IMG/VR virus record: IMGVR_UViG_3300037246_001176
Coordinates: 35,924-99,923 of that record
Direction: 5' to 3' (one strand)
Length of the DNA: 64,000 bases
From: a virus
Shown here: positions 21,151 through 40,294 of the stretch, one piece after another
Layout of the letters: each line of letters begins with the position of its first letter
How positions within the stretch are numbered: the first letter of the stretch is position 1
Translations under genes and position numbers: made by a program
The notes under the pieces: generated by a model
Told to the model about the DNA's origin: nothing
Databases searched by the model: none
The model's input: only the letters and a program-made list of their open reading frames with translations

Positions 21151-21852
21151 TCCATTTCACTCCTATCATCCATTTACGCTAACACTATCCTGAAAAACCA
21201 AGCCGCCGTCACAGCCGCCAGCAGGACGCCCTGCTGAACTGTATGCTTGTCTGTCGCGCCGCTTTTCTGCCACAGCCGCCAGGCGACGAGGAGCAAGACG
21301 GTTGAGATTATGGCTAATATCGTTGTGTTCATCATCCCTATTCTCCAGCATTGCTTTTATTTCCTCAATCAGCAAGAAACAACCACGGCAAGTAACCTTT
21401 CCTTCAATTACTTCCCCATCGGCTACGCCGTCCTCGCCATCTAGCTGGATTCCGCAAAGAGTCCGTGGCCCCGCATATTGCACTGCAACATGGTACGCCC
21501 CGTCAATCAATGCGGACTCAAAATACTCGTGGTTTTTGTCTGTTGCTATCATCTGGAAAACACGCATCATTTAACCTCCTTAAATTCCACCGGCCCCCAC
21601 CTTGCCGCCGAGGCTTGTTGCCCTTTTCTGTCCCCGCCACCCCCACCACCACGCTTGCCGTGGCTGGTGCTCTGGCGAGAATGGCAAGCCGTGTCCGGCC
21701 CTGCGTCCGGCTGCGGGGCGCTCTTGCGAGCGGGCGTGCTTGCTGGCCTGCCGTGAATTTGATGCTGCTTTTACCGAGTACCTGTTCGTTTTTGCCCGGT
21801 CATTTGTGCCGGGCCATGAGCGCGCACCGCTCCGACACGATGCGCGCCGTCC

Positions 21853-21973
21853 CCCTGCTCCCTGCCTAGCGGATGAATAAAAAGCTACTTTTATCGTCGT
21901 TCCCCTTTGACATCTGATTGCCTCGTTCTGTTCCGCCGCGAGGTTTGACGGCCTCGCTGGCAGGGATGCAGGG
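21853..21973 (-). ncRNA. Novel structured RNA, copy A
   Basis: Closing stem CCCTGCATCCCTGCC/GGCAGGGAGCAGGG; homologous to 37219-37370. Confidence 0.7.
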
Positions 21974-22998
21974 TTACGGATGCGAGCCGTTATGAGGCGG
22001 CTTCGCATCGCTGATCGCTGCCCATTCTGGCACTGTCTCTGCCGCTCTCAGGCTCTCCAGCCTGTCGTCGTTGCCCGCTGCCATTATGAGCCACGTAGAC
22101 TTTGCTTTCGCCATTCTCAGGCTGATCGGGCAGCACAATTTCCTTTCTGGCGCAACAGTCCAAGAACTGCCAGCGGGCATCGTCTTTTTGGGCATTACGA
22201 CCGTCCAACCCCACCTCCCTGATTTTTCTTTAACAAGGTGCAGGACGGTGTGAGAGAAATTGTAATCCTCGCGCCTGACGCTGACGCAAATTCGCTTGCG
22301 CCCGCCATAGGTGGCGGGTTCGCCAAATTCTACCGAGCCTGGTACGTAGCTGTCACTCATCCAGTTCCTCCTTGTCTATGCCAGGACTAACCGCCCATCC
22401 CCCCCTGTGCTGTATCACGACCGCAACCACTCGCCCTTCCGCTTCCTCCGCCGCCAGCACATCACCGAGCGAGCCTGGGGCGTAGCTGTGGCCCTGGAGC
22501 AGGAGCGGTTGTGTTGATGTGGACTCTAGCCAACCGATGCCGTCAATATGAAGATGCTGGCGGTCAAAAACGTGTATGTCGTCCCCCGCCAAATCTTCAC
22601 AATATACGTATGTATTACTGACTAGAGTCACGACGAGCACTGTCTTTTTGTGAGCAGCACCAGGCACAAATTGCACGAAGACTACCTTGTCACCGACTTG
22701 ATATTTCATCACATCGCTGCCTTCTCTGGCGTTGCTAATGAAGCGTGCCACAAAGCAGGTTCAGTCCATTTTAAATCAAAAGTCAACACTTCCTCGCAAG
22801 CCAGGCACTCAAACTCCGTTGATGTTGGCAGATCATACCCGCAGCCCTCCCAGTCATGCGCCGATTCTTTCAGTTTGTCCAACATATCAGCGCCGCAGTA
22901 TGGACAAAGCGCCCCCCATTCTTTGAGCTCCCAGTCCCTATCAAATTTCGCCCTTTTTGCCATGAAAGCATCTACATCAAAAGACATCGCTATCTCCT

Positions 22999-23013
22999 TT
23001 CTGGATTCCAGAA
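22999..23013. repeat. Dispersed palindrome TTCTGGA-N-TCCAGAA
   Basis: Also at 23254-23268, 38356-38370, 42559-42573, 53587-53601, 58744-58758; near match at 8352-8366. Confidence 0.85.
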
Positions 23014-23271
23014 TCACTATACCGACAGCTTGTAGCAAAACCTGAATATGCCGATCCGCAACGATCTGTTACTGCCATATTCAAAATGGTATAATACCCA
23101 TCGGCCTTTGACATCGATCACCTTGATGCAGAAAGACGCACGCCGAAACGGATTGTCCTTCTCGTCAGAATCATCAAAAGTCCATTTCTGCCCAGGCATT
23201 ACTCTCGGCCCGAACCATGAACGCCACAATGCTTTCAACATTGCCATTCTCCTTTCTGGATTCCAGAAACT

Positions 23272-24015
23272 TCACACGAAGCAATATCCTAACGAACACT
23301 GTCCTACATCTTGAAAATTACCGCTATCAATATCCACGTCGGGCAATAATACCCGATCTCTATGCAGCCATATTTCCGAATCCTGTTTGCGCACTAATTC
23401 CTCTAAACCTATTGCCTTGGCCCAATCATCTGGCTGCTCATCTCGCAAATACCGCCATTCGGAATTGTTTCTGTGAGGACAACACCAACAAGCTGACTTC
23501 GCCGGTATCGGTAAGCCTGCATCTTGGATAATCTGCCAACAAGTAGCCCGACTGATCATCAAATCTATGAGCGGAAACTTGCGTCTGAACCACTTTTTCC
23601 GACCTGGCTTAGCACGACGAATCTCGTCATGACTGAATCCCAGCCAAACGTCGCATGATTTAACACCCTGCTGCCGCGCCCACCTCATCATCACATATTC
23701 TTTCCATTCGGAGGAGCAGAAAGTCGGGAACTTGCTGCTAGCGGTATACATCGGCAAGAGCAGATCGCCATTGTGCGCATACAGGTCTACTGTCGCCAAG
23801 CTGTGCGGCGCAATCTCTATTTGTAATCCAATTCCCGACAAAAGCGGAAGTACATACTTACTCAGATATTGCCAAGTAGCTGTTCCTTCTCTGCTGGTGT
23901 CGGCAATGGCGGCGAGGTCTGGACACGGCAACTTTCCTGAAGCAACGAGCACGGCTATAGCCACGCTCTGAACACCACCCCCGTAACTCCAGACAAGAAT
24001 CCTATCAGCCGTCAT
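23272..24015 (-). CDS. PAPS-reductase / adenine nucleotide alpha hydrolase family protein
   Basis: SYGGGVQS PP-loop, ADT, KSACWCCP. Confidence 0.8.
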   Translation of the reverse strand: MTADRILVWSYGGGVQSVAIAVLVASGKLPCPDLAAIADTSREGTATWQYLSKYVLPLLSGIGLQIEIAPHSLATVDLYAHNGDLLLPMYTASSKFPTFCSSEWKEYVMMRWARQQGVKSCDVWLGFSHDEIRRAKPGRKKWFRRKFPLIDLMISRATCWQIIQDAGLPIPAKSACWCCPHRNNSEWRYLRDEQPDDWAKAIGLEELVRKQDSEIWLHRDRVLLPDVDIDSGNFQDVGQCSLGYCFV

Positions 24016-24016
24016 A

Positions 24017-24931
24017 TTACACCGGCCTCCCCAACCTCAAGAAAGTCTCAAATTCCCGCGCCGTTAAGCCCGCCACCAGCATATCGTCGGGTTTCATCGG
24101 AAGGTTCGCCACCCTCACCTTCTCCGCCCCTGCCTGCGACAGCATCTTGCCCAGCCGCCACGCCTGGACTTTGGCGTCCGGGTCGAGCGCCACGAAAACG
24201 TCGTGCCCACGGAACATCGGCAGCCATGCCTCGTCGAACCCCTCCTTGCCCATCTGTGCTACTGTTGGAAAAACCTGCCCGACGACGATGGCTTTCCTGC
24301 AGCCCTCCACAAGCGCCACCCTGCCGTTCTCGCTCAGGACGCTGGCGTTGAACAGTTGCAGGCCCAGGCCCGCCATGTGCGGCCTGTACTTGTCGCCGCT
24401 GTTCGCGCCCTTCAGTCGGTGGCGGATGTTGAGCAGCTCGCCGCCCGCGCCCGTCACTGGGATGGTGTAGCTGGCCCTGCCTTCCACGTCGGTCGGGCAG
24501 CAGAGGCAGAAGCCGAGGCTATAGCTGTAGAATGACTCCATGTTCACGCCCTGGGCCAGCCACCAGTCCAAGGCTCCGGGCGTCACGCCGGCGGCCTTGT
24601 GATATGCTAAATGGTCTTTGTTGTGCGCCATACTCTCTACTGCCTGTAAGCGTTTCTCCTGGTCTTTTTGCTGACGTTCTAGCGTCCGAACGCGCATTTC
24701 CATCAAGTCGGCGGGGGACGGGCGCTTGGCTCCTGCCAGGTCGTCGACCCATCCCTTGCGCCCGCAATGCCCTTCCTCCGGGCTGGGCCTGCACCAGTAA
24801 TTTCCCCGCTCCCAAATGTGATAACGGTCTTTTCCCCCGCACCAAGGACAACTCCCTGCCCACTCATCATGCCCGACCTTTTTGAGTTGGATGCCGAAAT
24901 GAGACTCGATAAAGCCGATGGGGTCAATCAT
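24017..24931 (-). CDS. DNA primase (zinc finger plus TOPRIM)
   Basis: CPWCGGKDR...YWCR, LVEG, ALDPD, KPDD. Confidence 0.85.
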   Translation of the reverse strand: MIDPIGFIESHFGIQLKKVGHDEWAGSCPWCGGKDRYHIWERGNYWCRPSPEEGHCGRKGWVDDLAGAKRPSPADLMEMRVRTLERQQKDQEKRLQAVESMAHNKDHLAYHKAAGVTPGALDWWLAQGVNMESFYSYSLGFCLCCPTDVEGRASYTIPVTGAGGELLNIRHRLKGANSGDKYRPHMAGLGLQLFNASVLSENGRVALVEGCRKAIVVGQVFPTVAQMGKEGFDEAWLPMFRGHDVFVALDPDAKVQAWRLGKMLSQAGAEKVRVANLPMKPDDMLVAGLTAREFETFLRLGRPV

Positions 24932-25770
24932 GGTCGTCCTCCGTTCGGCATCTGGTTCCATTTCTGCCCATCAAGGCGGCGGCCAGCGGCTTTCTTGCCG
25001 ACGCGCCCCATCAGGTTTCTATCGGGCCACCAGTGTAATTTCTGTGGTAAGGGATACCTGGCGTCAGCGGGTATATGTGCCCACGCTCCCCACTGCTTAA
25101 AAAACCGTGCAATCCCGTGCTTGCCCGCCCAGTCCCTCGCGTTTCTGAACCAGTCGGGATGTGCTGGTCTCGCACCTGGCCCGCTCTCACCGCCAAAAAT
25201 CAAAAGGTCGATGAACTCCCATCCTGTCCAATCCACGGGGCCGAGAGCGGGTTCATAAGAAACGAACTTCACGGCGGCGGGGGTAGCCTCAAAATCCCGG
25301 CGGCACGCATCGGCTGCGGCCTGGTTCTCAACGGAGACGCCGAGCCAGATGTGCCGAAACGAACGCAAGCTCAGGCTTGTCTTTTCCTGAAACCACACTA
25401 CAAATTGCAGCATCCTTTCGAGCCTCTTCGTGAGGATCGGAAACGTGTGCCATTCAGCTGCTATGATCGTGGCGAAAATCTCACCTATAACTCCAAAAGA
25501 CACATCCTCGTGAAATAGGTCACCCATGTATTGCGCGCCAATGACAGCAGGCTTCTTTCGCCTCAATGGTTCGTGCAGCCTCAACTCAACCAATACTGGC
25601 GCATCACCAGCGTAGGCCGCCCTCACCGTGGGGCAAAAGACAATATTGTAAGACATCCGGTTGGCCATGCGCAGATGCCAACAGTGCTTGCATCCCTCCG
25701 AGACCTTACTACATCGCATGGCTATTGGATTCCAGGTGAAGTCAAGATATTCTATGCTCGTTCGGTTCAC
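24928..25770 (-). CDS. Gp37/Gp68 (DUF5131) family protein
   Basis: TWNP, CSKVSEGCKHC, MGDLFHE, LTKR, SYEP, GGESG, FFKQWG. Confidence 0.92.
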   Translation of the reverse strand: MNRTSIEYLDFTWNPIAMRCSKVSEGCKHCWHLRMANRMSYNIVFCPTVRAAYAGDAPVLVELRLHEPLRRKKPAVIGAQYMGDLFHEDVSFGVIGEIFATIIAAEWHTFPILTKRLERMLQFVVWFQEKTSLSLRSFRHIWLGVSVENQAAADACRRDFEATPAAVKFVSYEPALGPVDWTGWEFIDLLIFGGESGPGARPAHPDWFRNARDWAGKHGIARFFKQWGAWAHIPADARYPLPQKLHWWPDRNLMGRVGKKAAGRRLDGQKWNQMPNGGRP

Positions 25771-26223
25771 ATCTCACCGCCTTTCCATCGTTCCTCAGCA
25801 TCCGACTCCAGCTCCGCCAGTTTCAGCCACTGCTTTTTGGTCGTTGCATGCCGCCGTTGAGTTGCAATAGCTTATCAATAACCCATCCTAGCGCATCATG
25901 CAATCTGAGTATTTCATCTCCAGAAAAACAAGTGCGTAGCGTTGGCGTCACGATTTCAACGACAGAACCATCAAGCAGTAGCGTGAAAGACGGTCGCTTA
26001 ACTTTCCAATCAGTCATCTGCACTTTCCATTTTCACCAGCCTTTTCAATTCAATCACAAGACCGCCGTGCATTTGGCTTTGCCGCCACGTAAACACCCAC
26101 TCACCACCACCAGGCACATCCTCAGATCGCTTGACAGACTCTATGAGAATATCTTGAATCTCTGACTCTGCAAGACGGTATATCGTTTCCGTAACCGAAC
26201 TGTGCTTCATCACGATTTCCATT

Positions 26224-27234
26224 CTAGTCCTCCCAAACCCTGCTTGCGCCGCACTTCTCTTCAGCGTCCGATTCCAGCTCCGCCAGCTTCAGGTACGGCA
26301 TATCGAAATGAAGCGCCCATGTGTGCCGCCCCGCCTCGCCCCTCTGCTTCAGCATCCGCATCACAAATAATCGTTCGGTGATCGGGAACTGCGTGCCGCG
26401 AATCTCCACGAACTCGTCGTATTTGGCGAGCGCAGAATCATCCTTCGTCTGCCAGGGCCTCCACAGCGCCAGCACCAGGTCCGCGACCTGCTCCACGCTG
26501 GAGGCCCACAGGTTGTCGCGGAGTTCTGGTATCTTCTCCCTACGCCCGTCTACGTCTCTGTTCGCCTGCGACGCCGCCACGGCGGGAACGCCGATGCGCA
26601 GGGCCAGCTCCTTCAGGCGGAAAGGGACTTCCGTGACCTGCTGCACGCGGTCGCGGAAGCCTTGGACGGGCACAATCTGGATGTAATCGAACAGGATCAA
26701 CGTGGGCTTGCGGCCATAGTCCTCGTGCATCGTCTCTATGGCCTGGTAGACGACCTCGGGCGTCATCCGAGGAACTCGCTTCCCGGCCCGCCCGATGCCG
26801 TGACCGATGACCCAAATCGGGGAGGTGACGCGCCGCATCGCATGATAGCTCAATGTGTTGAGATCGACCTTGCCCCATGCAATGTCGGAGATGCTAAGAC
26901 CCTCGCAGGTGAGGAACATAGCGGCCAGGGCCTCGGCAGAGGTTTCCCAAGTGACAAAAACCACGCACTCGCTCTCCTCCATACCCCGCGCCGTGATGCT
27001 GGCAGCTTCCCGTTTCGCCATGACCGCCAGCAAGCTGGACTTGCCGTGCCCTGGCCTGGCGCAGACTACGGCAAATGTGCCAGGACGCAACGGGATGATC
27101 TTCCTGTCCACGGACGGAACGCCAAACTTTATACCAGGCTCGGCCTGCACCTTTTCGGCCCACTGTATCAGGCTAGTGGCGAGGTCGTCTGGCTTGTGGA
27201 TCAGGGCACGAAAGTCGCCGTCGCTCCGTTTCAT
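26224..27234 (-). CDS. DnaB-like replicative helicase
   Basis: ARPGHGKS, LFDYIQ, SQANR, VEQVAD, KQRG. Confidence 0.92.
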   Translation of the reverse strand: MKRSDGDFRALIHKPDDLATSLIQWAEKVQAEPGIKFGVPSVDRKIIPLRPGTFAVVCARPGHGKSSLLAVMAKREAASITARGMEESECVVFVTWETSAEALAAMFLTCEGLSISDIAWGKVDLNTLSYHAMRRVTSPIWVIGHGIGRAGKRVPRMTPEVVYQAIETMHEDYGRKPTLILFDYIQIVPVQGFRDRVQQVTEVPFRLKELALRIGVPAVAASQANRDVDGRREKIPELRDNLWASSVEQVADLVLALWRPWQTKDDSALAKYDEFVEIRGTQFPITERLFVMRMLKQRGEAGRHTWALHFDMPYLKLAELESDAEEKCGASRVWED

Positions 27235-27524
27235 CCAGCCGCCGCCGTCGCACTGTGGCCGCCCAGGGCCAGGTACAGGGCCTCCAGGCGGTCGTGCTCC
27301 ATAATGCAGCCATCAAGTTGTTGCTTGGCGGCCTTGCGGCAAGCAACATGAAAGGGGTCGGTCAGCCTCGCCGCACGGTCTGCCCGCGCCTGTTCCGTCT
27401 CAACCATGCTCTTGGCGAGAGAAGTCATCGCCAGGCCAAGGCCGACGACGCACTTTTCGCAGTATTCAGGTTGGCCGAAGCCGTTGTCCAACGAAGTCAG
27501 TCCGCCGGTGCAGTTGTCACACAT
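27231..27524 (-). CDS. Small zinc-binding protein, first gene of the helicase operon
   Basis: CDNC...CEKC; ATGA overlap with the helicase gene; own promoter. Confidence 0.6.
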   Translation of the reverse strand: MCDNCTGGLTSLDNGFGQPEYCEKCVVGLGLAMTSLAKSMVETEQARADRAARLTDPFHVACRKAAKQQLDGCIMEHDRLEALYLALGGHSATAAAG

Positions 27525-27564
27525 TCTGTCTGTCCTTTCTGTTCTCCTGTTTGCTGTCTGTTAT

Positions 27565-27593
27565 ATTATAGCATGTTACTTCTGTTTTGTCAA
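27565..27593 (-). promoter_or_regulatory. Sigma70 promoter of the helicase/primase operon
   Basis: TTGACA-17-TATAAT with TGC extension. Confidence 0.8.
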
Positions 27594-27784
27594 GTCTGTG
27601 TCGGCAGCTTGTAGACGCGTCTATCCTCAAATTCCTGCCTCTTGCCCACATTCCAAGATTCAATCGGGCGAAGAAATCCCACCACTCTTGACCACACCTG
27701 GCAGGGGATCCTCACGACGGGCTCGCCGCGCGCCTCTGCCTCCGCCTCAGCTCCGCCGGTCGCTGCTGCATCTTTGTCACTCAT
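27590..27784 (-). CDS. Stand-alone NrdD C-terminal glycyl-radical domain
   Basis: CQVWSRVVGFLRPIESWNVGKRQEFEDR. Confidence 0.85.
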   Translation of the reverse strand: MSDKDAAATGGAEAEAEARGEPVVRIPCQVWSRVVGFLRPIESWNVGKRQEFEDRRVYKLPTQT

Positions 27785-28137
27785 CTTCCCTCCATTCAAG
27801 CGCATCGCATCCAAATCTCAACTCGCTGGTAATCTCCATCGGCGTCAACGACTCCTCGCCAAGCCCATGATGCGCCCTGTCAGGCATCGCGAACGACGGA
27901 TCTCTCCATTGGCTGACGGAATAGAGCGGCGTACCGTCGCAATCCCGCCTGTGAGCCACTACCCACACGCGGGCGTGTATCTTCCAGCAAGCGCCTCCCC
28001 CGAACCACTCGTCCCATTTCACTTCCACCAGCGTGCCGATCGGGATGTCGTGCCGCTTCTCCAAATTTTCTTCTTTGTAGGTCTTTCCGGTGTCGGGATT
28101 GACCAGATCGTGAACGGCAAAGAATTTTACCGTCAAG

Positions 28138-28323
28138 CTAATCCTCCTCCGCCTTCCCGTCCTCCCCGATCTGCCGCACGCTGCGACAGTCGGGCCATTG
28201 GGGGCAGCCCCAAAATGGAGGCCAGTCCTGATGCCGCTTCGGCCTGCGCAGTCTCATCCTCGCGCCGCAACTGGGGCAGTGGGGTTCCGGCTTCGTCTGT
28301 ATGCCTGTCATCTCATTCTCCAC
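28138..28323 (-). CDS. Topoisomerase-type C4 zinc ribbon protein
   Basis: CPSCGARMRLR...FWGCPQWPDC. Confidence 0.8.
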   Translation of the reverse strand: MENEMTGIQTKPEPHCPSCGARMRLRRPKRHQDWPPFWGCPQWPDCRSVRQIGEDGKAEED

Positions 28324-28492
28324 TTCATTTTACCATTCACCGCCAGCCTCAACGATAGCATTCTCAAGAGTTAACTCAAGGCGCTCCAGTTGTTTTTGTT
28401 CATGAGGCGTGGTGTTTCTAGTATCTAAACACCCATTATTCAGATGCCACTCGGCTAACTGTTCCGATACTTCTTCTAACGCCTTTAACAAC

Positions 28493-29902
28493 TTACTTCT
28501 CATGATCCTCTTTCCTTTCTAGCATAGATTCCTTGTGGCAAACCGCGATCTGCCGCCCGATCCAGCGGGCCACGGGGACGGCGACAGCGTTTCCAAGTTG
28601 CCGATAACGCGCCGTGTCGCTTGTTCCGCTTACATCCGTCCATCCTCGCGGGAAGCCCTGAAGTAGCTCCGCTTCCGTCGGGGTAAGGCGACGAACTCCC
28701 ATGCTCATCAAGACTGCTGGTGTCTGGCTCGCTTGCAACGCCGACGTTCGCTCGCTGGAGACGTTCAGCCGCACATCTCCGCCAGACTGCCAGTCAAACG
28801 CCACCAGCGCCGCAGGATACCCTTGTCCCGGCTTGCCCCCGCCAGCCGAGACTGGGCTGCTGCACGGCGTCAACCTGAGTTCGCCTTGCTGGTTCCCGCT
28901 CAACCCCTGAACGACAAAGTGCTCGCCGTCAGGGTCGTTGCGCTGGTTGTGTCCAGACAGAGCGTGCTTGACTATATCGTCTCGGACGACCAGCACCTCG
29001 CTTCCCATGCCCGCATCCCCGCCGCTGGCCCTGAGCGTCCCTGGTTGTTGACGATATTCCCCAAAGTTCGCCAGGGCATAGCCGTCAGTCACCACGAACT
29101 CCTCCGCTATAGGCCAGCTTCCACCCGCGCGACGGCTAGGAGAGCTTGCTTTAAGTGGGGCGGTAACGTCTTTCCTCTCGCCTCTGCGCGGCGCAGAATC
29201 CCACGACAGGCTCTCTGGCTCAAAAAGAACTTTTGCAGGTAGTCCTGCCAGTCCTGAAACGTCTTGCCCTGGTTGCGCGCTCCCCAATCCTCCCACGTCT
29301 CCAGAACGTCCGACAATGAACACACGCTCGCGTCGCTGGGCCAGGTTGTAGTATTGAGCATCAAGGCTCCGGAAGACCCACCAATAGCCGAGTTGCCCCA
29401 GCGAAGCGAGGATGGTTTCAAGATCGCTCGTCTCTTCCACTTCCCAGTCGCGCGCCATACTTTCTGCCCATCTTTCAGCGTCACCTCTTTGATCGAAGTC
29501 TCTAACCTGCGCTTCACGAGGCGGCGGTTCTGCGCTGCTCCAAGACGAGCGAAGGCCAGGGACGTTTTCGATGACCACCCATGTCGGGCGGAGTTCCTCA
29601 ATAACTCGAAGCATCTCCCACCAAAGCCCTGACCGCTCTCCTGCCAGGCCAGCACGTCGTCCAGCCACCGAGAAGCCAACGCAGGGAATTCCCCCCGAAA
29701 CAATGTCAACTGGTTCAAGATTATGCCTCCCGACATTCCTTATGTCTCCGAACCGCCGCACATCGGGCCAGTGGTGCGCCAGCACCGCGTTGCACCTGGC
29801 GTCCGTCTCGACCTGCCACAGCGTCTCGATCCCCGCCATATCAAAGCCCCATCCAAAACCTGAGATCCCAGCAAACAGTTCGCCGTGAGTGAGCTTTTTC
29901 AT
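28493..29902 (-). CDS. DNA (cytosine-5) methyltransferase
   Basis: ELFAGISG, GIPC, ENV, QRRERVF, RRLTPTEA..LQGFP, QLGNAV. Confidence 0.93.
   Translation of the reverse strand: MKKLTHGELFAGISGFGWGFDMAGIETLWQVETDARCNAVLAHHWPDVRRFGDIRNVGRHNLEPVDIVSGGIPCVGFSVAGRRAGLAGERSGLWWEMLRVIEELRPTWVVIENVPGLRSSWSSAEPPPREAQVRDFDQRGDAERWAESMARDWEVEETSDLETILASLGQLGYWWVFRSLDAQYYNLAQRRERVFIVGRSGDVGGLGSAQPGQDVSGLAGLPAKVLFEPESLSWDSAPRRGERKDVTAPLKASSPSRRAGGSWPIAEEFVVTDGYALANFGEYRQQPGTLRASGGDAGMGSEVLVVRDDIVKHALSGHNQRNDPDGEHFVVQGLSGNQQGELRLTPCSSPVSAGGGKPGQGYPAALVAFDWQSGGDVRLNVSSERTSALQASQTPAVLMSMGVRRLTPTEAELLQGFPRGWTDVSGTSDTARYRQLGNAVAVPVARWIGRQIAVCHKESMLERKEDHEK
29107..29736 (-). CDS. Nested alternative-frame ORF, M.EcoHK31I beta-subunit-like
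   Basis: CSLSDVLE...FFLSQRACRGILRRAEARGKTLPPHLKQAL; AGGA precedes ATG. Confidence 0.65.
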   Translation of the reverse strand: MSGGIILNQLTLFRGEFPALASRWLDDVLAWQESGQGFGGRCFELLRNSARHGWSSKTSLAFARLGAAQNRRLVKRRLETSIKEVTLKDGQKVWRATGKWKRRAILKPSSLRWGNSAIGGSSGALMLNTTTWPSDASVCSLSDVLETWEDWGARNQGKTFQDWQDYLQKFFLSQRACRGILRRAEARGKTLPPHLKQALLAVARVEAGL

Positions 29903-30616
29903 TTCCTGTGCCTAAGTTCCCTGAAAAGTTTTTCACCCGCCTCAGTCAGCGATAGCTCCAAAAAACTGCTGAAAGCGTATTTTGTGCTCACCCATACGAC
30001 AAGTCCCCGCCTGCGCAGCGCGTTCAAACTGCGCACATCTTGTTTCTCGCCTGTCACGCACGATCTACAAAAATCCTCTCCGCCATATCTGCTGATGCCG
30101 CCTGCAACTGCTATGAGTGCTTTTTCCATTCCTTTCGTCAGAGCAAACGCTGTCATCCCCCTACCCTCCCGCCCTGACCACGCCAGGCTCCCCGCCGCTG
30201 CTCTGCGCCAGCTCTCCCGACAGATCCGGCGGTTCTGGCAAGACAGCCTTCTTCCAAAGGCCGAACGCGCCCGCGTAAATGAAGTGCCCATCGCCTACGT
30301 AGGCGATGGAACTCATCGTCCTATACACTTTCACCAAAATCATCTCTGGTTCGCGACGCGGATATTTCCAGCGCCATCTATAAAACCAGTAACGCCCTGG
30401 CTCCACCGGCCAAACCTCCGTCCACCCATCCTCGGCAGCAAGCATCGCCTCCCATATCGCCTCCGACGCGATGTCCCAAAACCGCCGCCCCAACATGCCG
30501 CTCAAGGCGGTGCGCAGTTCGGGGTCGGGCACGATCTCCAGGTACCGCCCCTCCGACATCGGAAAGATGCTTTTTGGATACGGGTTTGTGGGCCAAAATG
30601 GTGGCTTTTGCATCTG

Positions 30617-32107
30617 CTATCCTCCCACCTGAATCACCCCAGGCTCCCCGCCGCCGCCCTCCGCCGCCAGGAACGCCGGCAGCACGGAAACCAGGCTCTT
30701 CGGACCAGCCACGGTGAAGGTCATCCGCTCGGCCTCGTAATGCCTGTGATACTCATCCAGCGCCCTGATGGTTGCGCCCAGGTTGCCGCCGTTGAGCTCC
30801 AAGAGCCAGCCCGCTGCGCCGCAGTGCGCCTCGATGCTGCCGGGGAACGGGAGCCTGCCGCCGCACCACAGGAGCGCGACACGCTGGCATATCGCGTACT
30901 CGGCATCGGAGACGCTCTCCCAGTGGCGCGGCCTGACGTGGGTGTCGCTGTCGCCGGGCTTCTCGCGCCGGGCGTGGTTGAACAGGTCGGTGAGGTAGTC
31001 GCGCTTCGGGGCAGGCTGTTCTGCCGCGACCTGTGCCTGCTCGTGCCCTTCTTTCTGGGCCAGGTGCTGGCGGTACTGCCGCTCGCGGTTGTTCCAGAAG
31101 GCGGCGGGAACGCCCAACACCTGTTCAAGTCGCAGAGCAATTTCTGGGGTGATGGGCATTTTGCCTTGAACAACCTCGCTGGCTGTCTCCTCGCGCCAAC
31201 TCATCCGTCGGGCCAGTTCGCCCTGGGACATTCCCAGTTCTTCAAGCTTCTCCAGCAGTGTCTCGCCGGGAGGGGAGACGTGGTCCGGCATGTATTCGTG
31301 CGGTTTGGAAAGGATGCCGCCAGCGACAGGAGCATCTATGCCGATGCCGTTGTCAACGAGGTCGCCGGAGGATATGCCGTATTTTTGCTCAAGAACCTGT
31401 AACTCGCGATCTATTTCGGCTAGCACCATCATGCTCGGCACGCCTTCATCATCTTCGTCGTCAGATGTTGCTGGATCGGTATCAAATGGTGGTTCGGGCA
31501 AGAATGGCTCATGGGCTATAGAGAGTTGTGGTTCTAACGGTTCACTATTGGTGACTTGTTCTTGTTGCTGTTCGCCAATTGGGAATTTTGGAGCGGGCGG
31601 ATCTATCTGTGCTGTACTTTCTGCTACAGTCTCTGTTAAGGATGTTACCGTTTCGTCATTTGTAAGTAACGCTTTAGTTTGTTGTAATTCACGCTTTGGT
31701 GAATTGCAATTTTTCTTCCATCTTTCAGACTCTCTTTTGAGCGACGGGAGAAACGCATTCCAGTTGATGCGCCAGTGTGTGGTAGGCGAACCGTTGAATC
31801 GCCACTTCTTGGTGAAAACAAGTCCTTTTTTTACGAGTATCTTGGCTGCCCTGTCTACCTGTCTCGGTTTCAGCCTGGTCTCTGCCCACCATTCCGTGCG
31901 TGCTTTGGCGACCCACAGGTTACCTTCTTTGGAAATTCGCATTTTTGATGTGCCGTGCTTTGTGGGAAGATGCCAATAGACCAATTGACTGAGTAACAAG
32001 CCTGCCATCAAATCGTCTGCCATGTCTACGTAGACGGTTTTGAAGTCTATGGTATCACGCGATGCTGCTTCCCATGCAAAAAAGTCTTGCTGGCTTTGGT
32101 AGTCCAT
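30617..32107 (-). CDS. Replication initiator / replisome organiser (N-terminal wHTH) with internal HigA-like HTH
   Basis: AGLLLSQLVYW...WVAKARTEWWAET; PPGETLLEKLEELGMSQGELARRM...ITPEIALRLEQVLGVPAAFW. Confidence 0.75.
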   Translation of the reverse strand: MDYQSQQDFFAWEAASRDTIDFKTVYVDMADDLMAGLLLSQLVYWHLPTKHGTSKMRISKEGNLWVAKARTEWWAETRLKPRQVDRAAKILVKKGLVFTKKWRFNGSPTTHWRINWNAFLPSLKRESERWKKNCNSPKRELQQTKALLTNDETVTSLTETVAESTAQIDPPAPKFPIGEQQQEQVTNSEPLEPQLSIAHEPFLPEPPFDTDPATSDDEDDEGVPSMMVLAEIDRELQVLEQKYGISSGDLVDNGIGIDAPVAGGILSKPHEYMPDHVSPPGETLLEKLEELGMSQGELARRMSWREETASEVVQGKMPITPEIALRLEQVLGVPAAFWNNRERQYRQHLAQKEGHEQAQVAAEQPAPKRDYLTDLFNHARREKPGDSDTHVRPRHWESVSDAEYAICQRVALLWCGGRLPFPGSIEAHCGAAGWLLELNGGNLGATIRALDEYHRHYEAERMTFTVAGPKSLVSVLPAFLAAEGGGGEPGVIQVGG

Positions 32108-32123
32108 TACGATCTCCTTTTGT

Positions 32124-32696
32124 TCATCCGTCTATCAAATTCTCCCGTTTTAGCCAATGTATAAAATCCAAATCGTCTTGGTTGAGTTTGAACCATTCAT
32201 TTGTTACTAGTTTTTTATCCGTTATATGCTTTTCATCAAACCAAGTTTGTAGATGAGATTCAGCAACTTCCATGTCACAACTTTCTAATATGTAGAGTAT
32301 CTTGACTGGCTTGCCCATTCCATACTGAATTGCAATTCTGCGCTGTGCTACATCAACACTTTGACCGATCTTGTAAATACCGTTACATTCCATCACATAT
32401 ACATATCCATGTCGAGAAATCCCATCCCATCCTTGACTATTCTTATAATGATCGTCATAAGAATAGCGCCACTTAGCTATTAGATTGTAACGAGTTGTAT
32501 CTGCCTTACAGTCGTAAAATTTCCTCACTATGTCAGATAATTTTTGGAAGTCTTCTAAAGATAAAATAGTTCCATCCTTGCGAGTGAGACAAAAATATTC
32601 CTCTTTAGTCACTGGGTCATAAGCGACTGCTCGCATAGACAACAAGTCATAAGGAGCAAGCATCTGACCAATTTCTCGTAATTGTCGGTCTGACAT
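32124..32696 (-). CDS. T5orf172 / GIY-YIG domain protein
   Basis: GYVYVM...YKIGQS...RR...ESHL...NEWF. Confidence 0.85.
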   Translation of the reverse strand: MSDRQLREIGQMLAPYDLLSMRAVAYDPVTKEEYFCLTRKDGTILSLEDFQKLSDIVRKFYDCKADTTRYNLIAKWRYSYDDHYKNSQGWDGISRHGYVYVMECNGIYKIGQSVDVAQRRIAIQYGMGKPVKILYILESCDMEVAESHLQTWFDEKHITDKKLVTNEWFKLNQDDLDFIHWLKRENLIDG

Positions 32697-32974
32697 TTTT
32701 TCTCCTATTCAACAAAAAAGGCATCATTGTCAAGCGGGGTTAGCAGCGAGCGAATTCCCTGTATGCTTCTGGCCGTTCCTGGGGCGAGCCACCGCCCAAT
32801 GCCATCCAACCCGGATCGTTAGTAAAAATGGCATAGCACTTACGCAAGCCGTCTTTGACACCTTGCCAATACTGTTTATCAGATTCGGTTGCCTCTTCCA
32901 ATTGTATTTTGGCATAATTCTGAGCGGCCAAAAAGATTTCAAAAGCCTCTTCCCATTCCATTTTTGCCACTCCT

Positions 32975-33177
32975 CAAATAAAAACCTTCCGCCCTTTTCT
33001 CAGACGGCTTGGCGATTCGGCAGCAGCTTGCGTGTTTTCCAGCACAGGAAAAACACTGCCAAAACCGCCTGAGAAAAACTCAGAAGGTCTTTAGTGCGTT
33101 GCTGCCTAGTTGTTAATCATGGTGGGTGTGCTACTCCCACCTACAAATATTATATCACAAGTTGAATCTGTTGTCAA
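32975..33177 (-). promoter_or_regulatory. Promoter plus structured attenuator leader
   Basis: TTGACA-17-TATAAT (33177-33149); long hairpin 32981-33090 with T-tract. Confidence 0.7.
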
Positions 33178-35460
33178 GCCCCAGCTTCTGGCTCCAGCCC
33201 TGGCTGCTCAACCTCTCCAACGAGACCGTGTTTTCTCAACATGGCTGTAAACAGCTCTAATCCCGCCTGACTATCAATGTGATAGAAAGGAATTGAGTTT
33301 GGGCGCTCAGGCCAATCATGTTGAATATGATAACCGCCAAGCCAATCTTCTGGCGGCGGACGACCGCAATGCCCGACAACGCGCACATCCTTTTTGCCAA
33401 TCTCGTTTGCATAAAGTTCTTGAGCGACGGCGAGCGGAACATCACCCCTGACGACCCAATAATACCAAGCCCTGCGAAACGTGTACTTGCCAAGCTTGCC
33501 CGTCAGGGTATAAGGAACCTCGGAGCAATGCGCTTCCGTAATATGCTCAACGGCAATTCCCGCCCCCGCCAGTTCCGAATTGATGAATTTGTCGCAGTTG
33601 ACGCATCCTGCCAAGTTGATCATGTCATCTCCTTTTTCTAGCTTCTCTGCCCAGTTGTCAAGCCCCAGTTTTAGCCCCTGCATCAGAGGCAACAGGCTGC
33701 GGCTCGAACTAATGGCCTGATAGTTGCAACTTGCAACTCAAATACGGTATGGGAATCCTCCTCTAGATGGTGCCTGGAATCCTCATCGATCACCCAGGCA
33801 TTTGTATCTGGATGATGCCTTACAATCATCAAATATAGATCTTCACGGCTTTCAATCCCGTTGAGAAATCGACAAACCGATTCCCCAACTTCTTGAGAAG
33901 TATGTTCAGTAAACATGAGTACCGTCTCTGCCTTTTCGTTCCCTATGCCAACGACTCGTGTTCTGTCAAACATGATGTAAAACATTTTCCTTTTCCCTTC
34001 TATCACTATGGTTTTCATTCGTCAAGCCCCAGTTCTCGCCCCTCACAGCCCCTCTATCTCCATATCGGTATCCTCACCGCAAACGAACGGCCTAGGAACC
34101 GCAACAGTCGGATGCCGAGATAGACAGTGTTTTTGTGAAAGTGCTCGTGCCTCAAGATTCTAAATTCTAACTTAGTTTTCATTCCAAGCTCCAACGTTCC
34201 CATCGCCAGCGGGAAACGCGCTGCCAACCGTGCTGCGCCAGAAATGCCGCGAGCGTGATCGGGACGCTCTAAAAAGCACCGCAATATCCATAACCCAAGC
34301 CATCCCAGCGTGTCCTGCAATTCAGTCATCAAGCCCCAGTTTCATCCCTGACACGGGCAGCCCAGGCTTCCGTCCGCCCGAATCGTCTCGGTTTCGGGCC
34401 ACGGCTCGCCGCAGTCAGGGCAACTGGCTTCGGGCTCTGGCCGTCCCAAGAACCGCAAGGCTTCGCGCCTGGCATCCTTCACCTGTTCCTGCGCGTCGCC
34501 CGAAAGCTCGTTCCAGCAGTATTCCCATGTCGGATCGTCGTCACGGATGCTGTCGGGCAGCACGGCCAGCAGCATCTCGACGGTTCTCTGGAATCCGGAA
34601 ACGGCGGCGCGCGCGCACCGCTCGATCTCCGCCTCAATCTCCGCCGCGTTGGACGCGTCTTCAAGCGAGAGACCTGTGTATTCCAGCAGGTCTATCACGT
34701 TTCCGCAGACGCACTCGTATGTGACGAAACCGCAGGTGGGCGCGTAGTAGCAATCGTCATCCTGCACCCCGCAGCGGGGACATATCACGCTTATGATGTA
34801 CCGTGTACCCATCATTTTTCCTTTCCGGCATCAAGCCTCAGTTCCAGCCTCGCCCAGTCGCCGCCGCTACTCATCCTCCTCACGGCGTAGAAGACGGGCA
34901 CGTAGCCCGCCTCCAGCGCGTCCCGGAGGTCGGCGGCGCTGTCCTCGTCCAGATCGATCTCGCAACTGAAAGTCGTCCCAGCGTGAAAGTCGCCGGCAGA
35001 GAGTTGGGCTCCAGCCCCGGTGAAATAGACGCGGTTGCCCTCGCTGTCCCGCCAGTCGCTGAAGACTAAATTGATCTTCATGCCCACCCTTCTCTCGCAA
35101 TGATGACTACTACCAGCCAGTCCCTGCCTCTCCCGCTCCAGCTTCGTCCCCGTCGCCGTCACGCAGGATTGGTTATTACCAACTGGTCTCCGTCTGTAAA
35201 GAATTTCATCGCTTGCTCCTCGCCTTCTTCGCCTGCTTGTGCATCTGCTTATGCTTCCGCTCAAAACCGCGCACCTCAACAGCCGTCCAGCCCTGCGCCA
35301 GCGCCGCCCGCTTGAACCAGCCACGGCTGACGGTTCCCGTTCGGTACGCGATCTCCAGGTCGCGCCTGCTCATGTCCGCTCTTTCCCGCATCGTCGTCCT
35401 CCGCCTGTCGCTAAGTGCCTGCCACAGTGACAGCTGAATTAGCCTCGCTTGCGTCACAGT

Positions 35461-36186
35461 TCAATCCAGCACTTCGCTCTGCCTGAACTCTACGTTGTCC
35501 AAATAGAAATCCCCTTGCCAAGCGAAGGCGCTGACCATCTTGAACTGGAGGACGACAGTCTCGCCCCACCAACTCTCTGTGTCAATGCACACCTCATGCC
35601 AGTCGCTCAAGGAAGAATCGCTGTTTGAACGGATCACATCCCAAGACGCCAGCACGGCGTCATCGAAAAGCAGCTCAACCGCATCGCCCCCCTCGTCCTG
35701 CAAGTCTTCCGAATAGACAAGGTATTCAAAGCAGAAAACTGCGCGGGACGGAACCGTCACCGTTTGCTCAATGACGGTTACGCACTCCCAGGGAGGCGGG
35801 TCAAGACGGCCCCTGTCGCCTAGCCATCCCAACCACCTGCCGTACCCCTCAATGCGCTCGATCCCCACGAACTGCAAGTAGGCTATGATCAGCTCGCGAC
35901 CCATGAGAGGGATCGAGGCGTGTTCTGTCCACGAGCCGTCGCTGCCGTTCTCAAAATCTCCGTTGAGCAACTCATACGTCGGTTGGAGGGTAGGATGTGG
36001 CGTAAAAGTCGGCATGGGCAAAGCGGTCGGCCTGGCTATCGGCGTGGCCGTAGGCATGACCGTTGACTGTTTGGAGACGAGGGACAGAAAGATGGCAAAT
36101 GTAGGCGTGACCTCTTGGGCCGACGAACTCGGTATGCAACCGACCAACAGGGTCGTTGCCAGCATAAGTAGTATCGCGCGTTTCAT
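35461..36186 (-). CDS. Lipoprotein with PT-rich linker and carbohydrate-binding-like beta domain
   Basis: Lipobox LVGC, PTATP repeats, LLNGDFENG...W, FYLDNV. Confidence 0.7.
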   Translation of the reverse strand: MKRAILLMLATTLLVGCIPSSSAQEVTPTFAIFLSLVSKQSTVMPTATPIARPTALPMPTFTPHPTLQPTYELLNGDFENGSDGSWTEHASIPLMGRELIIAYLQFVGIERIEGYGRWLGWLGDRGRLDPPPWECVTVIEQTVTVPSRAVFCFEYLVYSEDLQDEGGDAVELLFDDAVLASWDVIRSNSDSSLSDWHEVCIDTESWWGETVVLQFKMVSAFAWQGDFYLDNVEFRQSEVLD

Positions 36187-36198
36187 GTTCGTTCCTCT

Positions 36199-36717
36199 CT
36201 ATTCGTTAGTAACCGCCACCAGCCAGTCGCCGTACCCCGCGCACAGCGGCCTGACCTGGCTCTCCCAGTCAAGCTCGCCAGCCCCGCAGCCGGGGCGCGG
36301 CAGGTAGACTTGCGTCCATCGTTCCCACATCTGCAACTCGGCCAGCTCTTTTAACGACTGCTCTATGAGCGGCAGGGATGCTTTCATCGCCCATCCTGGC
36401 ACGGTGCTGCCCCTGATGTACCTGTTGCGCTGGCTCTTGACGACGTTCTGTCCATCACTGATGTCAGACACAGGCTTGACGGGAAAGGCTATCAAGCCCG
36501 GCCTGAGCAGTCGCACCTTGTTGCCGTCGTCCAGCATGGTGCGACCCAACTCCTTGGCGAGTCTCGGAAAGCGGACGCTGGCCTGCGCCGCCGTGCCACG
36601 ACCCATGACCGCCCTGCCGTCACTTCTGACGAAGCCGTTGGTAGTGATGCAGACAGCATAGTCGCTTGGTTTCTGGAAATCGTAGATTCGCCAGATATCT
36701 ATTATTCGTTCGATCAC
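36199..36717 (-). CDS. Macrodomain (ADP-ribose binding/hydrolase, TARG1/DarG-like)
   Basis: TTNG...VMGRGTA, FPVK, LPRPGCGAGELDW. Confidence 0.85.
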   Translation of the reverse strand: MIERIIDIWRIYDFQKPSDYAVCITTNGFVRSDGRAVMGRGTAAQASVRFPRLAKELGRTMLDDGNKVRLLRPGLIAFPVKPVSDISDGQNVVKSQRNRYIRGSTVPGWAMKASLPLIEQSLKELAELQMWERWTQVYLPRPGCGAGELDWESQVRPLCAGYGDWLVAVTNE

Positions 36718-37218
36718 CCCGCCTCCTTTTCGCACTCGCCGCAGTGGCAAGTGCCCTTGACGCTTCTGACGATGCTGGCCAGCGGGTGGCCGCAGATGGG
36801 GTTGAGCCCAAGAGCCGCCATCCCCGCCTCACGATCCAAACCATCAACGGGCGCTAACACCCATGCGATAGCCCATGTTTGAGGTTCCACTTGCCTGGCT
36901 CGCTTCTCCATCTCCCGCCATGCTGCTATTGCACTTGCTAATTTCTCTGCGGATAAGAACCCAAATAATTCTTGCATCGTCACTCCTCCCATTCCGTTAT
37001 CCCCGTTTGCCGACATCAGGCGTTGAAAAGCTCTTTCATCGCCCGGTCGAACGCCGTGCCCGACGCCTGCGCCCTGCAAGCCCCGCAAAGCACCGGCGGC
37101 GGCCACTTCTCAGTCTCGTGCCAGAATGTCCTGTCGCAATGCTGGCAGGCCACCGGCACGGAGGTTTTCTTGTCCCTGAAAGTTTCTTCGTCTGGCATGG
37201 TTGTCTCCTGTTTGTTTG

Positions 37219-37370
37219 CCCGCATCCCCGCCTGGCGGTGAATTAGTCTTCGTCGTCTTGCTGGTCGTTCCCTTTGATACACCTTTTGTTGGTTGCCTCT
37301 GACGTTGCAGCACCTGCTCTCAGGATGTTCCGCCACAAGCCTAGACTGGACTCGCTGACGGGGATGCGGG
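37219..37370 (-). ncRNA. Novel structured RNA, copy B
   Basis: Closing stem CCCGCATCCCCGTC/GGCGGGGATGCGGG; homologous to 21853-21973. Confidence 0.7.
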
Positions 37371-38615
37371 GTTGCTACCGTTGCATCAGATCTCGAATCG
37401 CGTGACGACCTCTTTGGCCTTTGGCGTGACGATCTCGCCCTTGATGATGAGAGCGAACGGGCCATCCCAATACTGTACGTCTATGGTATCGGGTAGAGCC
37501 GCCAATACGTCTGCTGCCATGAGTTCAATGTCTCCGTGTTCGTCTGGATTCAGTCGTTTTAGCAAGCCGTCCCTGGTTTCACTGGTGATGCGGATGTCTC
37601 CATCCCCATCGGCGCTGATGATAAAATACGTCACTTCTTCCACTATCCACCTCTGTTTCTTTCTCCGTCTCGCTGGCAGGGATGCGGGATTGCTACCCGA
37701 ACTTCCCATGCAGGTCTTGGAAGACCGAAGGCGCTTCTCCGTGCCCCAGCCTCTCCATCTCGCGCGTGGCGTGAATGTGCTGCACCGTCCCAGGGCCGTA
37801 CCAGGCCAGAAGCTCGCGCGCCTGCGCCAGCCGCCGCTTGGTGCTGGCAATTCGTTTCGGCGGCGTTGGCTTTCGCTGTCTGCTCATGACCCTATCCGCC
37901 AACTGCCGAGAAACGCTTTTCTGGACGGCAACGCAGCATCAACGTGCCGATGCCAGCGTCCGACAAGCTGGTGATGATGGTGTAGCCGTGTCCGTCCGTT
38001 ACCACAAAATCCTCGGCCCACGACGGCCAGGCGATAGCCTCGCTTTCCTCCGCACGGTCGCGGGCCTTGTCCCTGCCAGTCCGATAGCAGAAGTTGTCTT
38101 TCCTGCTGCACAGAGCAACGCCCGTGTTGATCACCTGACCACCGTCGTCAAGGATGAGACAGACAGTCATGCCGCCTCTCGGCATAGGCTCCCACGGGGT
38201 TAACCGCTTGCCGTTCTCATCCTTGCCAGACCGGTAATGCGCCAAGATGGTGTCAGCAGATGGTCGGTAACGCTTGTTGCTGTACACCCTGTAATGCCTG
38301 AATGTCGTCCTCATTTGTTCTCCTTTCGTTCGTATGTGCCAAGTGGCATAGTTCGTTCTGGATTCCAGAACTAGGTTTCGTCCCCGACGATCTTGGTGAT
38401 CTCTACTATTACTCCGTCGCCAATCTCAAATATCACAACCTGCCTCTCCGCCGTCACCAGGCTCAGCTCGTCGCCGCGCCAGTAGCAGCTGGCGGCGTAG
38501 TGGGTCGTGCCGTCTATGGTGACGATGTAGTTGGCCCAGGGCGGCGGCGCGGACAGGGCGCAGGCCAAGAGGAGCAGGGAGATGCAGACTATGACAAGCA
38601 GGGTTGTCTTAGCGT

Positions 38616-39896
38616 TCATGCCGCTTCCTCCCTGTCTATCACCGATTCGTCTTCCTTCAAATACCCTTCCAAGAGGCCAAATGTGAATGATTTGGCTTTG
38701 AGTATGCCAAACCATTTTTCGTGTTCGATCCGTATCGCGATGCCCTCACGGATATGATCTCCGAACAGCGACGGCCCCTCGGCCAAAAGCCCGGCCAGAG
38801 ACATCAGTCCTTCCCTGTCGCTCTCTTCATTGACGAAAGATGGCGGCTCGACTTCACGGACGTACTTTACGCCAAGTTCGCTGGCCCGCCTCTTGACAGC
38901 CCACCAAGGAAGTTCTGTTGTTACGCCGTCCTCGTTGTTCATCGTGATTCTGTAAATGTAGAACGCCTGTGTCCCGGTAGGACAGCCATATGTGTAGAAC
39001 ATCTTGTCGCCGTATCTCTCCCGTACAGACTTGTTGCGAAGCCGCGTCGTATCGTGAGCAGGCATGATAGGCGTCTCTGCCCCAGCCCAGCCCACGATCT
39101 CGCCATAAACAACTTCGCCTTTGTGAAGATTGCCCATCAGCCGCCGAGTAGCGTTGACGCGAAATGCTTCATCTCCATACCAAGAATCTCCCGTCCATTT
39201 TTCAAGTATCACTCTGCGCGTTCCCGATAAGTAGCGATAGCCGCGTTCAAGCAGCGGCTTTCTCATCAGGAATTTGTACAGACGGCCAACTAAGCCCCGG
39301 CGCTCGCTTTCATCATAGACGTGGCCGATACGGTGCGATGTGCCGTGCATCTTCTCGGTGACGGTCATCAGACTGCCGAGTGGGATGCGATCCGCCCAGG
39401 CGCGGAACTGCTTGACGTCGAACATCATAGGGAACGTCTTGGTCTCGCGGCGATGCCGGATCCGCCTGTTCCCGGCGGCGCAGGCGGTCGCCTGCGTGAT
39501 GTACTTGTTGCAGATCGGCACGCCGTTGAGCGCGTTGAACTCATCGCCCAGCTTGAGCTTCGCGAGATTCGTGCCCGTAAACTCAAAATAATCCAGCGGA
39601 CACCAGAAGCCATAAGACTTCTCGCCGCGAAAGTTCTGTGCCCGCACGCGCCTGTTCTTGGCGAAGAAGCCGCCTTCGCGTTCTCCCGTCTCGGGATTCT
39701 TTCTCTGGACAAGATCATGTTCGGCGGCAAATGCTTCTGACAGTTGGCCGTCGCTCGGAAAGAAGACACCAACCTCGTCGTCCTCCGTGTCAAGCCCTAC
39801 GACAACCTGATATCCGAGCACCAGTCCCAGCTGGATGCGGTCTGCGTTCGGGTGCGGCCTCGTTTGTATCTTTGTTACCGTAGCTTTGTAGGACAT
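38616..39896 (-). CDS. RNA ligase, DRB0094-like family
   Basis: N-terminal HPNADR OB-like domain; motifs TEKMHG, GEIVG, REGIAIR, LKAKS; start reassigned to MSYKA after AGGAG. Confidence 0.88.
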   Translation of the reverse strand: MSYKATVTKIQTRPHPNADRIQLGLVLGYQVVVGLDTEDDEVGVFFPSDGQLSEAFAAEHDLVQRKNPETGEREGGFFAKNRRVRAQNFRGEKSYGFWCPLDYFEFTGTNLAKLKLGDEFNALNGVPICNKYITQATACAAGNRRIRHRRETKTFPMMFDVKQFRAWADRIPLGSLMTVTEKMHGTSHRIGHVYDESERRGLVGRLYKFLMRKPLLERGYRYLSGTRRVILEKWTGDSWYGDEAFRVNATRRLMGNLHKGEVVYGEIVGWAGAETPIMPAHDTTRLRNKSVRERYGDKMFYTYGCPTGTQAFYIYRITMNNEDGVTTELPWWAVKRRASELGVKYVREVEPPSFVNEESDREGLMSLAGLLAEGPSLFGDHIREGIAIRIEHEKWFGILKAKSFTFGLLEGYLKEDESVIDREEAA

Positions 39897-39922
39897 CCCT
39901 CGTTCTCCTGTTCTCCTGAAAA

Positions 39923-40022: not shown

Positions 40023-40028
40023 TTTTTC

Positions 40029-40149: not shown

Positions 40150-40151
40150 TT

Positions 40152-40279: not shown

Positions 40280-40294
40280 TTCAGCGTCAGAAAC

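Follow-up and report, generated by a model that had tools for sequence, protein, structure and literature searches.

The early mRNA of phage T7 carries a set of RNase III signals (R0.3 to R1.3), which are diverged, paralogous structured sites that lie between genes and act in cis on processing and stability. These sites are single irregular hairpins of ~60 nucleotides (nt), with a coaxial helix of ~20 bp and conserved unpaired nucleotides. Other structured RNAs of phages are orphan motifs predicted from phage metagenomes, whose definition draws on covariation among many representatives (e.g., PMC10690425; Weinberg et al. 2017, PMC5737381). Here, we analyze a pair of intergenic elements, copies A and B, from an uncultured phage of ~100 kb with roughly 150 genes. 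The source is a complete 99,923-bp IMG/VR record with direct terminal repeats (IMGVR_UViG_3300037246_001176), and its bases 35924 to 99923 make up the stretch of 64,000 nt analyzed here, which we refer to as the window and to which all positions below belong. An initial annotation of the window had described an unrecognized structured RNA in two diverged copies. From our comparison of the copies with each other and with public sequence collections, the element is best explained as a genuine structured RNA that is confined to this phage lineage and is represented by two diverged paralogues and a truncated relic.

Fold and conserved blocks of the element

Inspection of the sequence placed both elements on the minus strand exactly where the initial annotation had put them, at 21973-21853 (copy A) and 37370-37219 (copy B). 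It also recovered all of the motifs quoted there, in the same order: closing stems, side hairpins, GGCGGAACA, GAGGCAA, TCAAAGGG(G)AACGAC, and ATTCA(T)CCGC. The parts of the two copies and of the truncated third copy, C', are as follows.

21853..21973, minus strand: copy A, 121 nt; its minimum free energy (MFE) structure is the shared fold
21973-21959 / 21866-21853, minus strand: closing stem P1 of copy A, 14 bp, with a bulged A at 21967
21957-21938, minus strand: hairpin P2 of copy A, 6 bp, GCGAGG/CCTCGC
21937-21933 / 21872-21868, minus strand: helix P3 of copy A, 5 bp
21958, 21932-21873, and 21867, minus strand: junction A, interior, and second junction A of copy A
21896..21924, minus strand: conserved unpaired core of copy A, with GAGGCAA at 21924-21918 and UCAAAGGGGAACGAC at 21910-21896
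37219..37370, minus strand: copy B, 152 nt; matched by covariance model R1 at 22.8 bits, E=0.0019
37370-37357 / 37232-37219, minus strand: P1 of copy B, 14 bp, followed by a junction A at 37356
37355-37335, minus strand: P2 of copy B, 7 bp, GCGAGTC/GGCTTGT, with three G-U pairs
37334-37330 / 37238-37234, minus strand: P3 of copy B, 5 bp
37329-37239, minus strand: interior of copy B, which holds an extra CCUG-AGAG-CAGG hairpin
37264..37299, minus strand: conserved unpaired core of copy B, with GAGGCAA at 37299-37293 and UCAAAGGGAACGAC at 37277-37264
37669-37697, minus strand: truncated copy C', 5' half only, reading GGUAGCAAUCCCGCAUCCCUGCCAGCGAG

The common fold is a three-way junction in which the GC-rich 14-bp closing stem P1, the 6- to 7-bp hairpin P2, and the 5-bp helix P3 (GGCGG/CCGCY) are connected by single-A linkers, and in which P3 encloses invariant unpaired purine-rich blocks carried on spacers of differing length. 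Both copies begin with the 5' strand of P1, A-GCGAG (the junction A plus the start of P2, the remainder of which differs between the copies, as does its loop), GGCGG-AACA, a spacer, GAGGCAA, and another spacer. They then continue with UCAAAGGG(G)AACGAC, a further spacer, AUUCA(U)CCGC(U/C), and A-GGC..., which is the 3' strand of P1. The spacer from AACA to GAGGCAA measures 4 nt in A versus 26 nt in B, that from GAGGCAA to UCAAAGGG 7 versus 15 nt, and that after AACGAC 17 versus 20 nt. While these spacers are unalignable, 49 nt are invariant within the anchored blocks, which bears out the earlier observation that unpaired motifs are conserved, and the core blocks are identical between the copies except for a 1-nt G indel.

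Folding of the individual copies agrees with this layout. The MFE structure of copy A is exactly the three-way junction (-52.5 kcal/mol, z -5.19, with 0 of 200 shuffles as good), and copy B, with a fold z of -3.95, reaches -58.9 kcal/mol when the three helices are enforced versus -59.7 kcal/mol when unconstrained, a gap of 0.8. In both copies, most of the UCAAAGGG(G)AAC block is predicted to be single-stranded.

To count pairs, we imposed the three helices on a MAFFT alignment of the two copies. Standard pairs occupied 98% of helix cells, compared to 44 to 48% after partners were slid by 1 to 3 columns, and the slid controls yielded no double changes at all. Both bases changed in three pairs, of which two went from U-A to C-G (both in P1) and the third, in P2, from G-C to U-G; four other pairs changed in one base, always between G-C and G-U, and one terminal pair is lost in B. 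Since a shuffle control on two rows cannot fall below about 0.1, we instead ran simulations in which the 11 observed substitutions fell at random among the 50 bases that are paired in copy A. The fraction of trials that preserved 24 or more of the 25 canonical pairs was 3e-5 without transition bias and 9e-3 at a kappa of 10; 24 pairs survive in the actual sequences. Pairing is thus kept while sequence changes, through compensatory and G-U changes, as had been proposed, and this single pairwise comparison provides evidence for a fold kept intact by selection for pairing.

The same changes bear on the nature of the molecule. Copy B contains five G-U pairs and copy A one, all of which would be A·C mismatches on the plus strand, and folds of the plus strand are weaker (z -1.80 versus -3.95 for B, and -4.41 versus -5.19 for A). 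It follows that the gene-sense strand is the one that folds, as RNA or, formally, as single-stranded DNA. Codon-type conservation, which the initial annotation had named as refuting evidence, is excluded: the spacer length differences between the copies are -1, +1, +22, +8, -1, +3, and -1, and since six of these seven are not multiples of three, a conserved open reading frame (ORF) can be dismissed. Some of the indels are of a single base within conserved blocks, and A and B have no frame of the three in which their translations are related. The long ORFs at 21580-22008 and 37016-37465, which run across the elements, are artifacts of GC-rich sequence, and a small-peptide reading of copy A, which contains a Shine-Dalgarno sequence plus AUG, was ruled out by frame analysis.

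Copies, neighboring genes, and searches for relatives

In a blastn search of the 99.9-kb genome, copy A matched the 5' 45 nt of copy B (E=7e-5), and the 5' and 3' parts of the two copies are about 78 to 80% identical. Model R1 was built from copy A alone, and copy B is its sole other significant minus-strand match in the window, at the score listed above; no further credible match was found in the window with filters off or in the 36 kb of genome outside it. C' came from a repeat search (family D4) and was confirmed by exact and fuzzy matching (blastn E=0.01), so that the two full copies initially annotated are joined by a truncated third. It lies between genes X and Y, 318 nt upstream of copy B, and retains the stop codon context, the 5' strand of P1, and the first bases of P2, where similarity ends. 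No local fold is present at C' (z +0.55).

All genes around both elements are on the minus strand and co-oriented. Those closest to the copies are as follows (RBS, ribosome-binding site; aa, amino acids).

21974..22360, minus strand: 128-aa gene upstream of copy A; homologues of 113 to 128 aa, aligned over residues 2-115
37693..37887, minus strand: gene X, 64 aa; its UAG (37695-37693) lies inside C'
37386..37643, minus strand: gene Y, 85 aa, upstream of copy B; GTG start, RBS GAGGUGG
37016..37198, minus strand: zinc-ribbon-like gene, 60 aa, CxxC...CxxC; RBS CAGGAGA 8 nt past the 3' end of copy B

Homologues of gene Y are mostly 78 to 96 aa long and colinear, with one called protein of 133 aa. 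Given these lengths and the position of C', the listed 154-aa ORF at 37386-37850 is really two genes, X and Y. This resolution, together with C' at another gene junction, is new in the present analysis, and it alters the view that both copies start just after a stop codon. Copy A does directly abut the UAA of a real gene, 21974-22360 (for which we found no Pfam or PHROG match). Copy B, on the other hand, begins 15 nt past the true stop of gene Y, and only a relic, GGUAGCAA, which is no longer a stop, aligns upstream of it with the stop codon context of the other copies. With C' on a stop codon, the relic at copy B, and copy A on a UAA, the 5' edge has therefore been a cassette recombination junction repeatedly.

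Copy B sits between gene Y and the zinc-ribbon-like gene, adjoins a phosphatase-like gene, and has an RNA ligase gene of the Rnl type 1.2 kb upstream (PF09414, with a sub-threshold match to the OB-fold profile PHA02142). The ligase ORF, 38616-40010 on the minus strand, is listed at 464 aa. Since all of its homologues are about 420 to 430 aa long, with 92% of the ORF covered, the true start lies near 39896, which lengthens the noncoding interval upstream. Copy A is located 15 kb further along the same transcriptional direction, where it follows a replication module of initiator, methyltransferase, DnaB-like helicase, and primase genes, and the genes that flank the two copies are unrelated to each other. 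No sigma-70-like promoter was found beside either copy, the single weak match being ~350 nt upstream of copy A inside the neighboring gene, and no intrinsic terminator was found in either scanned region around the copies.

The methyltransferase gene (28493-29902, minus strand) encodes ~165 extra residues in its middle relative to PHROG profiles (459 aa versus 294 positions), which may be an inserted domain. A 16-nt match to the 3' strand of P1 of copy B (GGCGGGGAUGCGGGCA) also occurs inside this gene, at 29008-29024 on the minus strand, and may reflect chance or a relic.

Several other intervals of the genome hold structure or repeats. After copy A, ~280 nt of GC-rich noncoding sequence (21571-21852, minus strand) precede the RBS of gene 21166-21570; this interval has an overall fold z of -2.81, and one of its hairpins (GGCGCGCAUCGUG...) is 12 bp long. 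Three further stable folds are located on the minus strand at 39918-40285, shortly before the RNA ligase gene. Among them are a cloverleaf-like RNA at 39918-40024 (z -3.03) and a three-way junction (40027-40151, z -3.83), which is closed by a 13-bp stem and has a GGCGG/CCGCC arm. Although the latter is like the element in topology and stem, it has no match to model R1 and does not align with the element, and we rejected it as a family member. Other repeated intergenic hairpin elements are also present (repeat families D1 and D6). A hairpin-plus-RBS unit, which reads UUCUGGAAUCCAGAA and then AGGAGA on the minus strand, recurs at three gene junctions (22987-23013, 23242-23268, and 38344-38370). 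A 27-nt repeat that contains CTTGAC on the minus strand occurs in five copies at 33166-34849, one per small gene at a spacing of 307 to 502 nt, and looks like a reiterated early promoter. In an Rfam search of the whole window, the only RNA to pass the gathering threshold was a tRNA at 57832-57903.

The RNA had been described as belonging to no recognized family, and this held: neither element matched an Rfam 15 family at gathering threshold in a window-wide search, and when both loci were searched permissively (E≤10, search space of 300 nt), the output was limited to unrelated families at chance level (E of 0.08 to 9). Copy B resembles type I-E CRISPR repeats at its 3' end, but this likeness is confined to B, has no Rfam CRISPR-DR match, and was set aside. 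Neither megablast nor blastn found a homologue among the 50,697 phage records of INPHARED. Six motif scans with four exact patterns over IMG/VR, JGI metagenomes, and GTDB genomes (596 Gb) returned only coding false positives (a capsid-like gene, purA, mnmG, and an Eremiobacterota contig).

We also examined loci that share neighboring genes with this phage. Eighty IMG/VR loci with ligase homologues have the ligase alone in common and no covariance model match, and by the same model, the element is absent from four IMG/VR loci with gene Y homologues; at one of these, another gene follows gene Y directly. Ligase homologues at 81 to 86% identity sit on contigs of up to 104,666 bp, and gene Y at at least 90% identity is present on JGI and Logan contigs. 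Judging from these proteins, which are 81 to 100% identical, close relatives of the phage do exist.

Possible roles of the element

We tentatively favor a reading in which the element is a protein-recognized intergenic RNA module that directs processing of the flanking cistrons, protects them, or both, and that possibly releases a stable RNA, although we would put this short of an even chance. The flanking genes are co-oriented, with no promoter or terminator adjacent to either element. Since the element has neither of its own, it is presumably made within an early or middle polycistronic mRNA, directly 3' of a cistron. A host or phage protein would then recognize the displayed unpaired blocks AACA, GAGGCAA, UCAAAGGG(G)AACGAC, and AUUCA, and the stable scaffold would direct endonucleolytic processing, shield the flanking cistrons from exonucleases, or do both. 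Such processing could free a stable RNA of ~120 to 150 nt.

Several points weigh against a processing or protective module. P1 alone, at 14 bp, is below the length of a classical RNase III substrate, although P1 and P2 could stack to 20 to 21 bp. RNase III and proteins with a double-stranded RNA-binding domain (dsRBD) are absent from the phage genome, and no nuclease or RNA-binding partner was identified. Only two sites serve roughly 150 genes, and other junctions have simpler hairpins. The INPHARED, IMG/VR, JGI, and GTDB searches returned no orthologue of the element, and with two full copies only, covariation is not statistically testable across lineages. The element is known here from its sequence.

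Alternatively, the element may work in trans as a stable small RNA, excised to serve as a ribonucleoprotein scaffold or decoy for, e.g., a host defense or RNA repair factor, which we consider rather unlikely; a protein-binding decoy or scaffold had also been suggested in the initial annotation. The RNA would then be part of a structured-RNA cluster around the phage RNA ligase and phosphatase genes. Stable noncoding RNAs typically have a long closing stem that protects both ends, and the element combines such a stem with invariant single-stranded blocks. Moreover, copy B is close to the ligase gene and adjoins the phosphatase-like gene, and the three stable folds, one of them cloverleaf-like, are just upstream of the ligase. 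Against a role in trans, there is no promoter or terminator dedicated to the element, copy A is 15 kb from the ligase, and plausible partners are not encoded: the complete 99.9-kb genome has no match to reverse transcriptases (PF00078) at E≤1 and lacks TROVE/Ro (PF05731). No phage target was found either. The variable segments had been suggested to be guide-like, a suggestion that gained no support, as no spacer has at least 12 nt of complementarity to gene-sense (minus-strand) phage transcripts, and one spacer is a local hairpin in B; the sole longer match is a 14-nt plus-strand site, about the chance expectation. That the element founds a new class of phage noncoding RNA, excised and acting in trans as a decoy or scaffold alongside the RNAs of the ligase/phosphatase module, is quite unlikely. 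Such an RNA could, for example, mimic a retron msr, a tRNA, or a Y RNA and thereby titrate a host defense or RNA repair factor. Two further RNA-level roles are less credible. Small ribozymes are common in phage transcripts, and a ribozyme of a class not yet described, which would cleave itself and so divide the polycistronic transcript between cistrons, would suit the intergenic place in a phage operon, the multihelix junction, the strictly conserved unpaired nucleotides, and the tolerated variable insertions. Yet no Rfam ribozyme model matched even in the permissive searches, a hammerhead, twister, or hepatitis delta virus core is not recognizable by eye, and the element is larger than most small self-cleavers, which makes this reading very unlikely. 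Most unlikely is control of the downstream gene by the element as a ligand-sensing riboswitch aptamer. Helices do frame a conserved unpaired core, and the zinc-ribbon-like gene has its RBS 8 nt past the end of copy B, but that RBS lies outside the fold, the 14-bp GC-rich P1 is too stable for switching, and neither a terminator nor an RBS-sequestering platform is present. In addition, 280 nt of noncoding sequence separate copy A from the next gene, the downstream genes are unrelated, and no Rfam aptamer matched.

The sequence might also function as DNA, or not at all. C' and the relic stop context upstream of B demonstrate recombination at the 5' edge, and a 14-bp inverted repeat at each end would fit a cassette-boundary recombination site or an insertion resembling a miniature inverted-repeat transposable element (MITE), with P1 as terminal inverted repeats and the RNA fold incidental. 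This is distinctly unlikely, given that pairing is kept through G-U pairs, which become A·C mismatches when the opposite strand is read, and that P2 and P3 are compensated as well as P1. Neither target-site duplications nor the R''/R' boxes of attC sites are present, tyrosine recombinase (PF00589) and Y1/HUH transposase are absent from the genome, and the motif scans of IMG/VR and of 596 Gb of GTDB genomes found no copies. A recently duplicated, decaying, functionless sequence, in which the shared blocks are stretches not yet mutated, would account for the presence of two copies in one genome only and for a copy already truncated, and some identical runs are expected in 5' and 3' parts that are ~78 to 80% identical. 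We nevertheless regard decay as decidedly improbable: random decay would break several of the 25 pairs (P≤0.009), conservation is bimodal (49 invariant anchored nucleotides versus unalignable spacers), and both copies fold far better than shuffles.

What was earlier called the signature of a functional noncoding RNA thus stands insofar as this is a structured gene-sense RNA with pairing kept, and on a basis of two sequences its interpretation as a functional, unrecognized RNA is reasonable. We class it as a clean orphan candidate, not as a proven new class. If real, the element would give phage biology a new structured-RNA family, selected for its helices and its displayed single-stranded blocks, in a genome that is unusually rich in stable intergenic RNAs beside an RNA repair module. 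It could throw light on the punctuation or protection of early polycistronic mRNAs in large uncultured phages, or it could prove to be a new RNA decoy; at present, its value is that of a well-defined two-copy orphan candidate.

Comparison with known systems

Among DNA elements, integron attC sites and Correia-type MITEs are similar to the element in their length range (57 to 160 nt), position directly 3' of a cassette ORF, imperfect terminal inverted repeats, extrahelical base, and variable center. Unlike attC sites, however, the element lacks the RYYYAAC/GTTRRRY boxes, its flanks being CCGTAAC / GGACGG in A and TAGCAAC / CAAACAA in B, and no integrase accompanies it. Unlike MITEs (Correia/ERIC-like), it has no target-site duplication, only 2.5 copies in the genome, and pairing that depends on G-U pairs of one strand.

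Among RNAs, retron msr-msd transcripts share with the element a long closing stem (cf. a1/a2) followed by A-G-C and then a short hairpin. The G of A-G-C, at the position of the retron branching G, is predicted to be paired in P2 in both copies. We take the likeness of AGCGAG to Ec86 to be a lead only, and unlike a retron, the element has no reverse transcriptase in the phage, no long msd hairpin, and no Rfam match. Bacterial and phage Y RNAs (YrlA), which are linked to operons for Ro/Rsr and RNA ligase, are likewise ~100 to 150 nt long, with a long 5'/3' closing stem and a location near RNA repair genes. Unlike them, the element is not accompanied by a TROVE/Ro gene, neither A nor B contains a tRNA-like T-arm module, and no Y RNA model of Rfam matched; the ligase here is of the Rnl type (PF09414) rather than RtcB.

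Unlike the orphan motifs of phage metagenomes (PMC10690425, PMC5737381), the element has two representatives, and it matches none of those now in Rfam 15. It differs from the RNase III sites of T7 in being a three-way junction of 121 to 152 nt with a large, partly unpaired arm and, in common with the orphan motifs, is a phage intergenic candidate known so far through sequence alone. Despite these differences, it is like the T7 sites in its intergenic place in a presumed polycistronic early transcript, its paralogous copies, and its conserved unpaired nucleotides.

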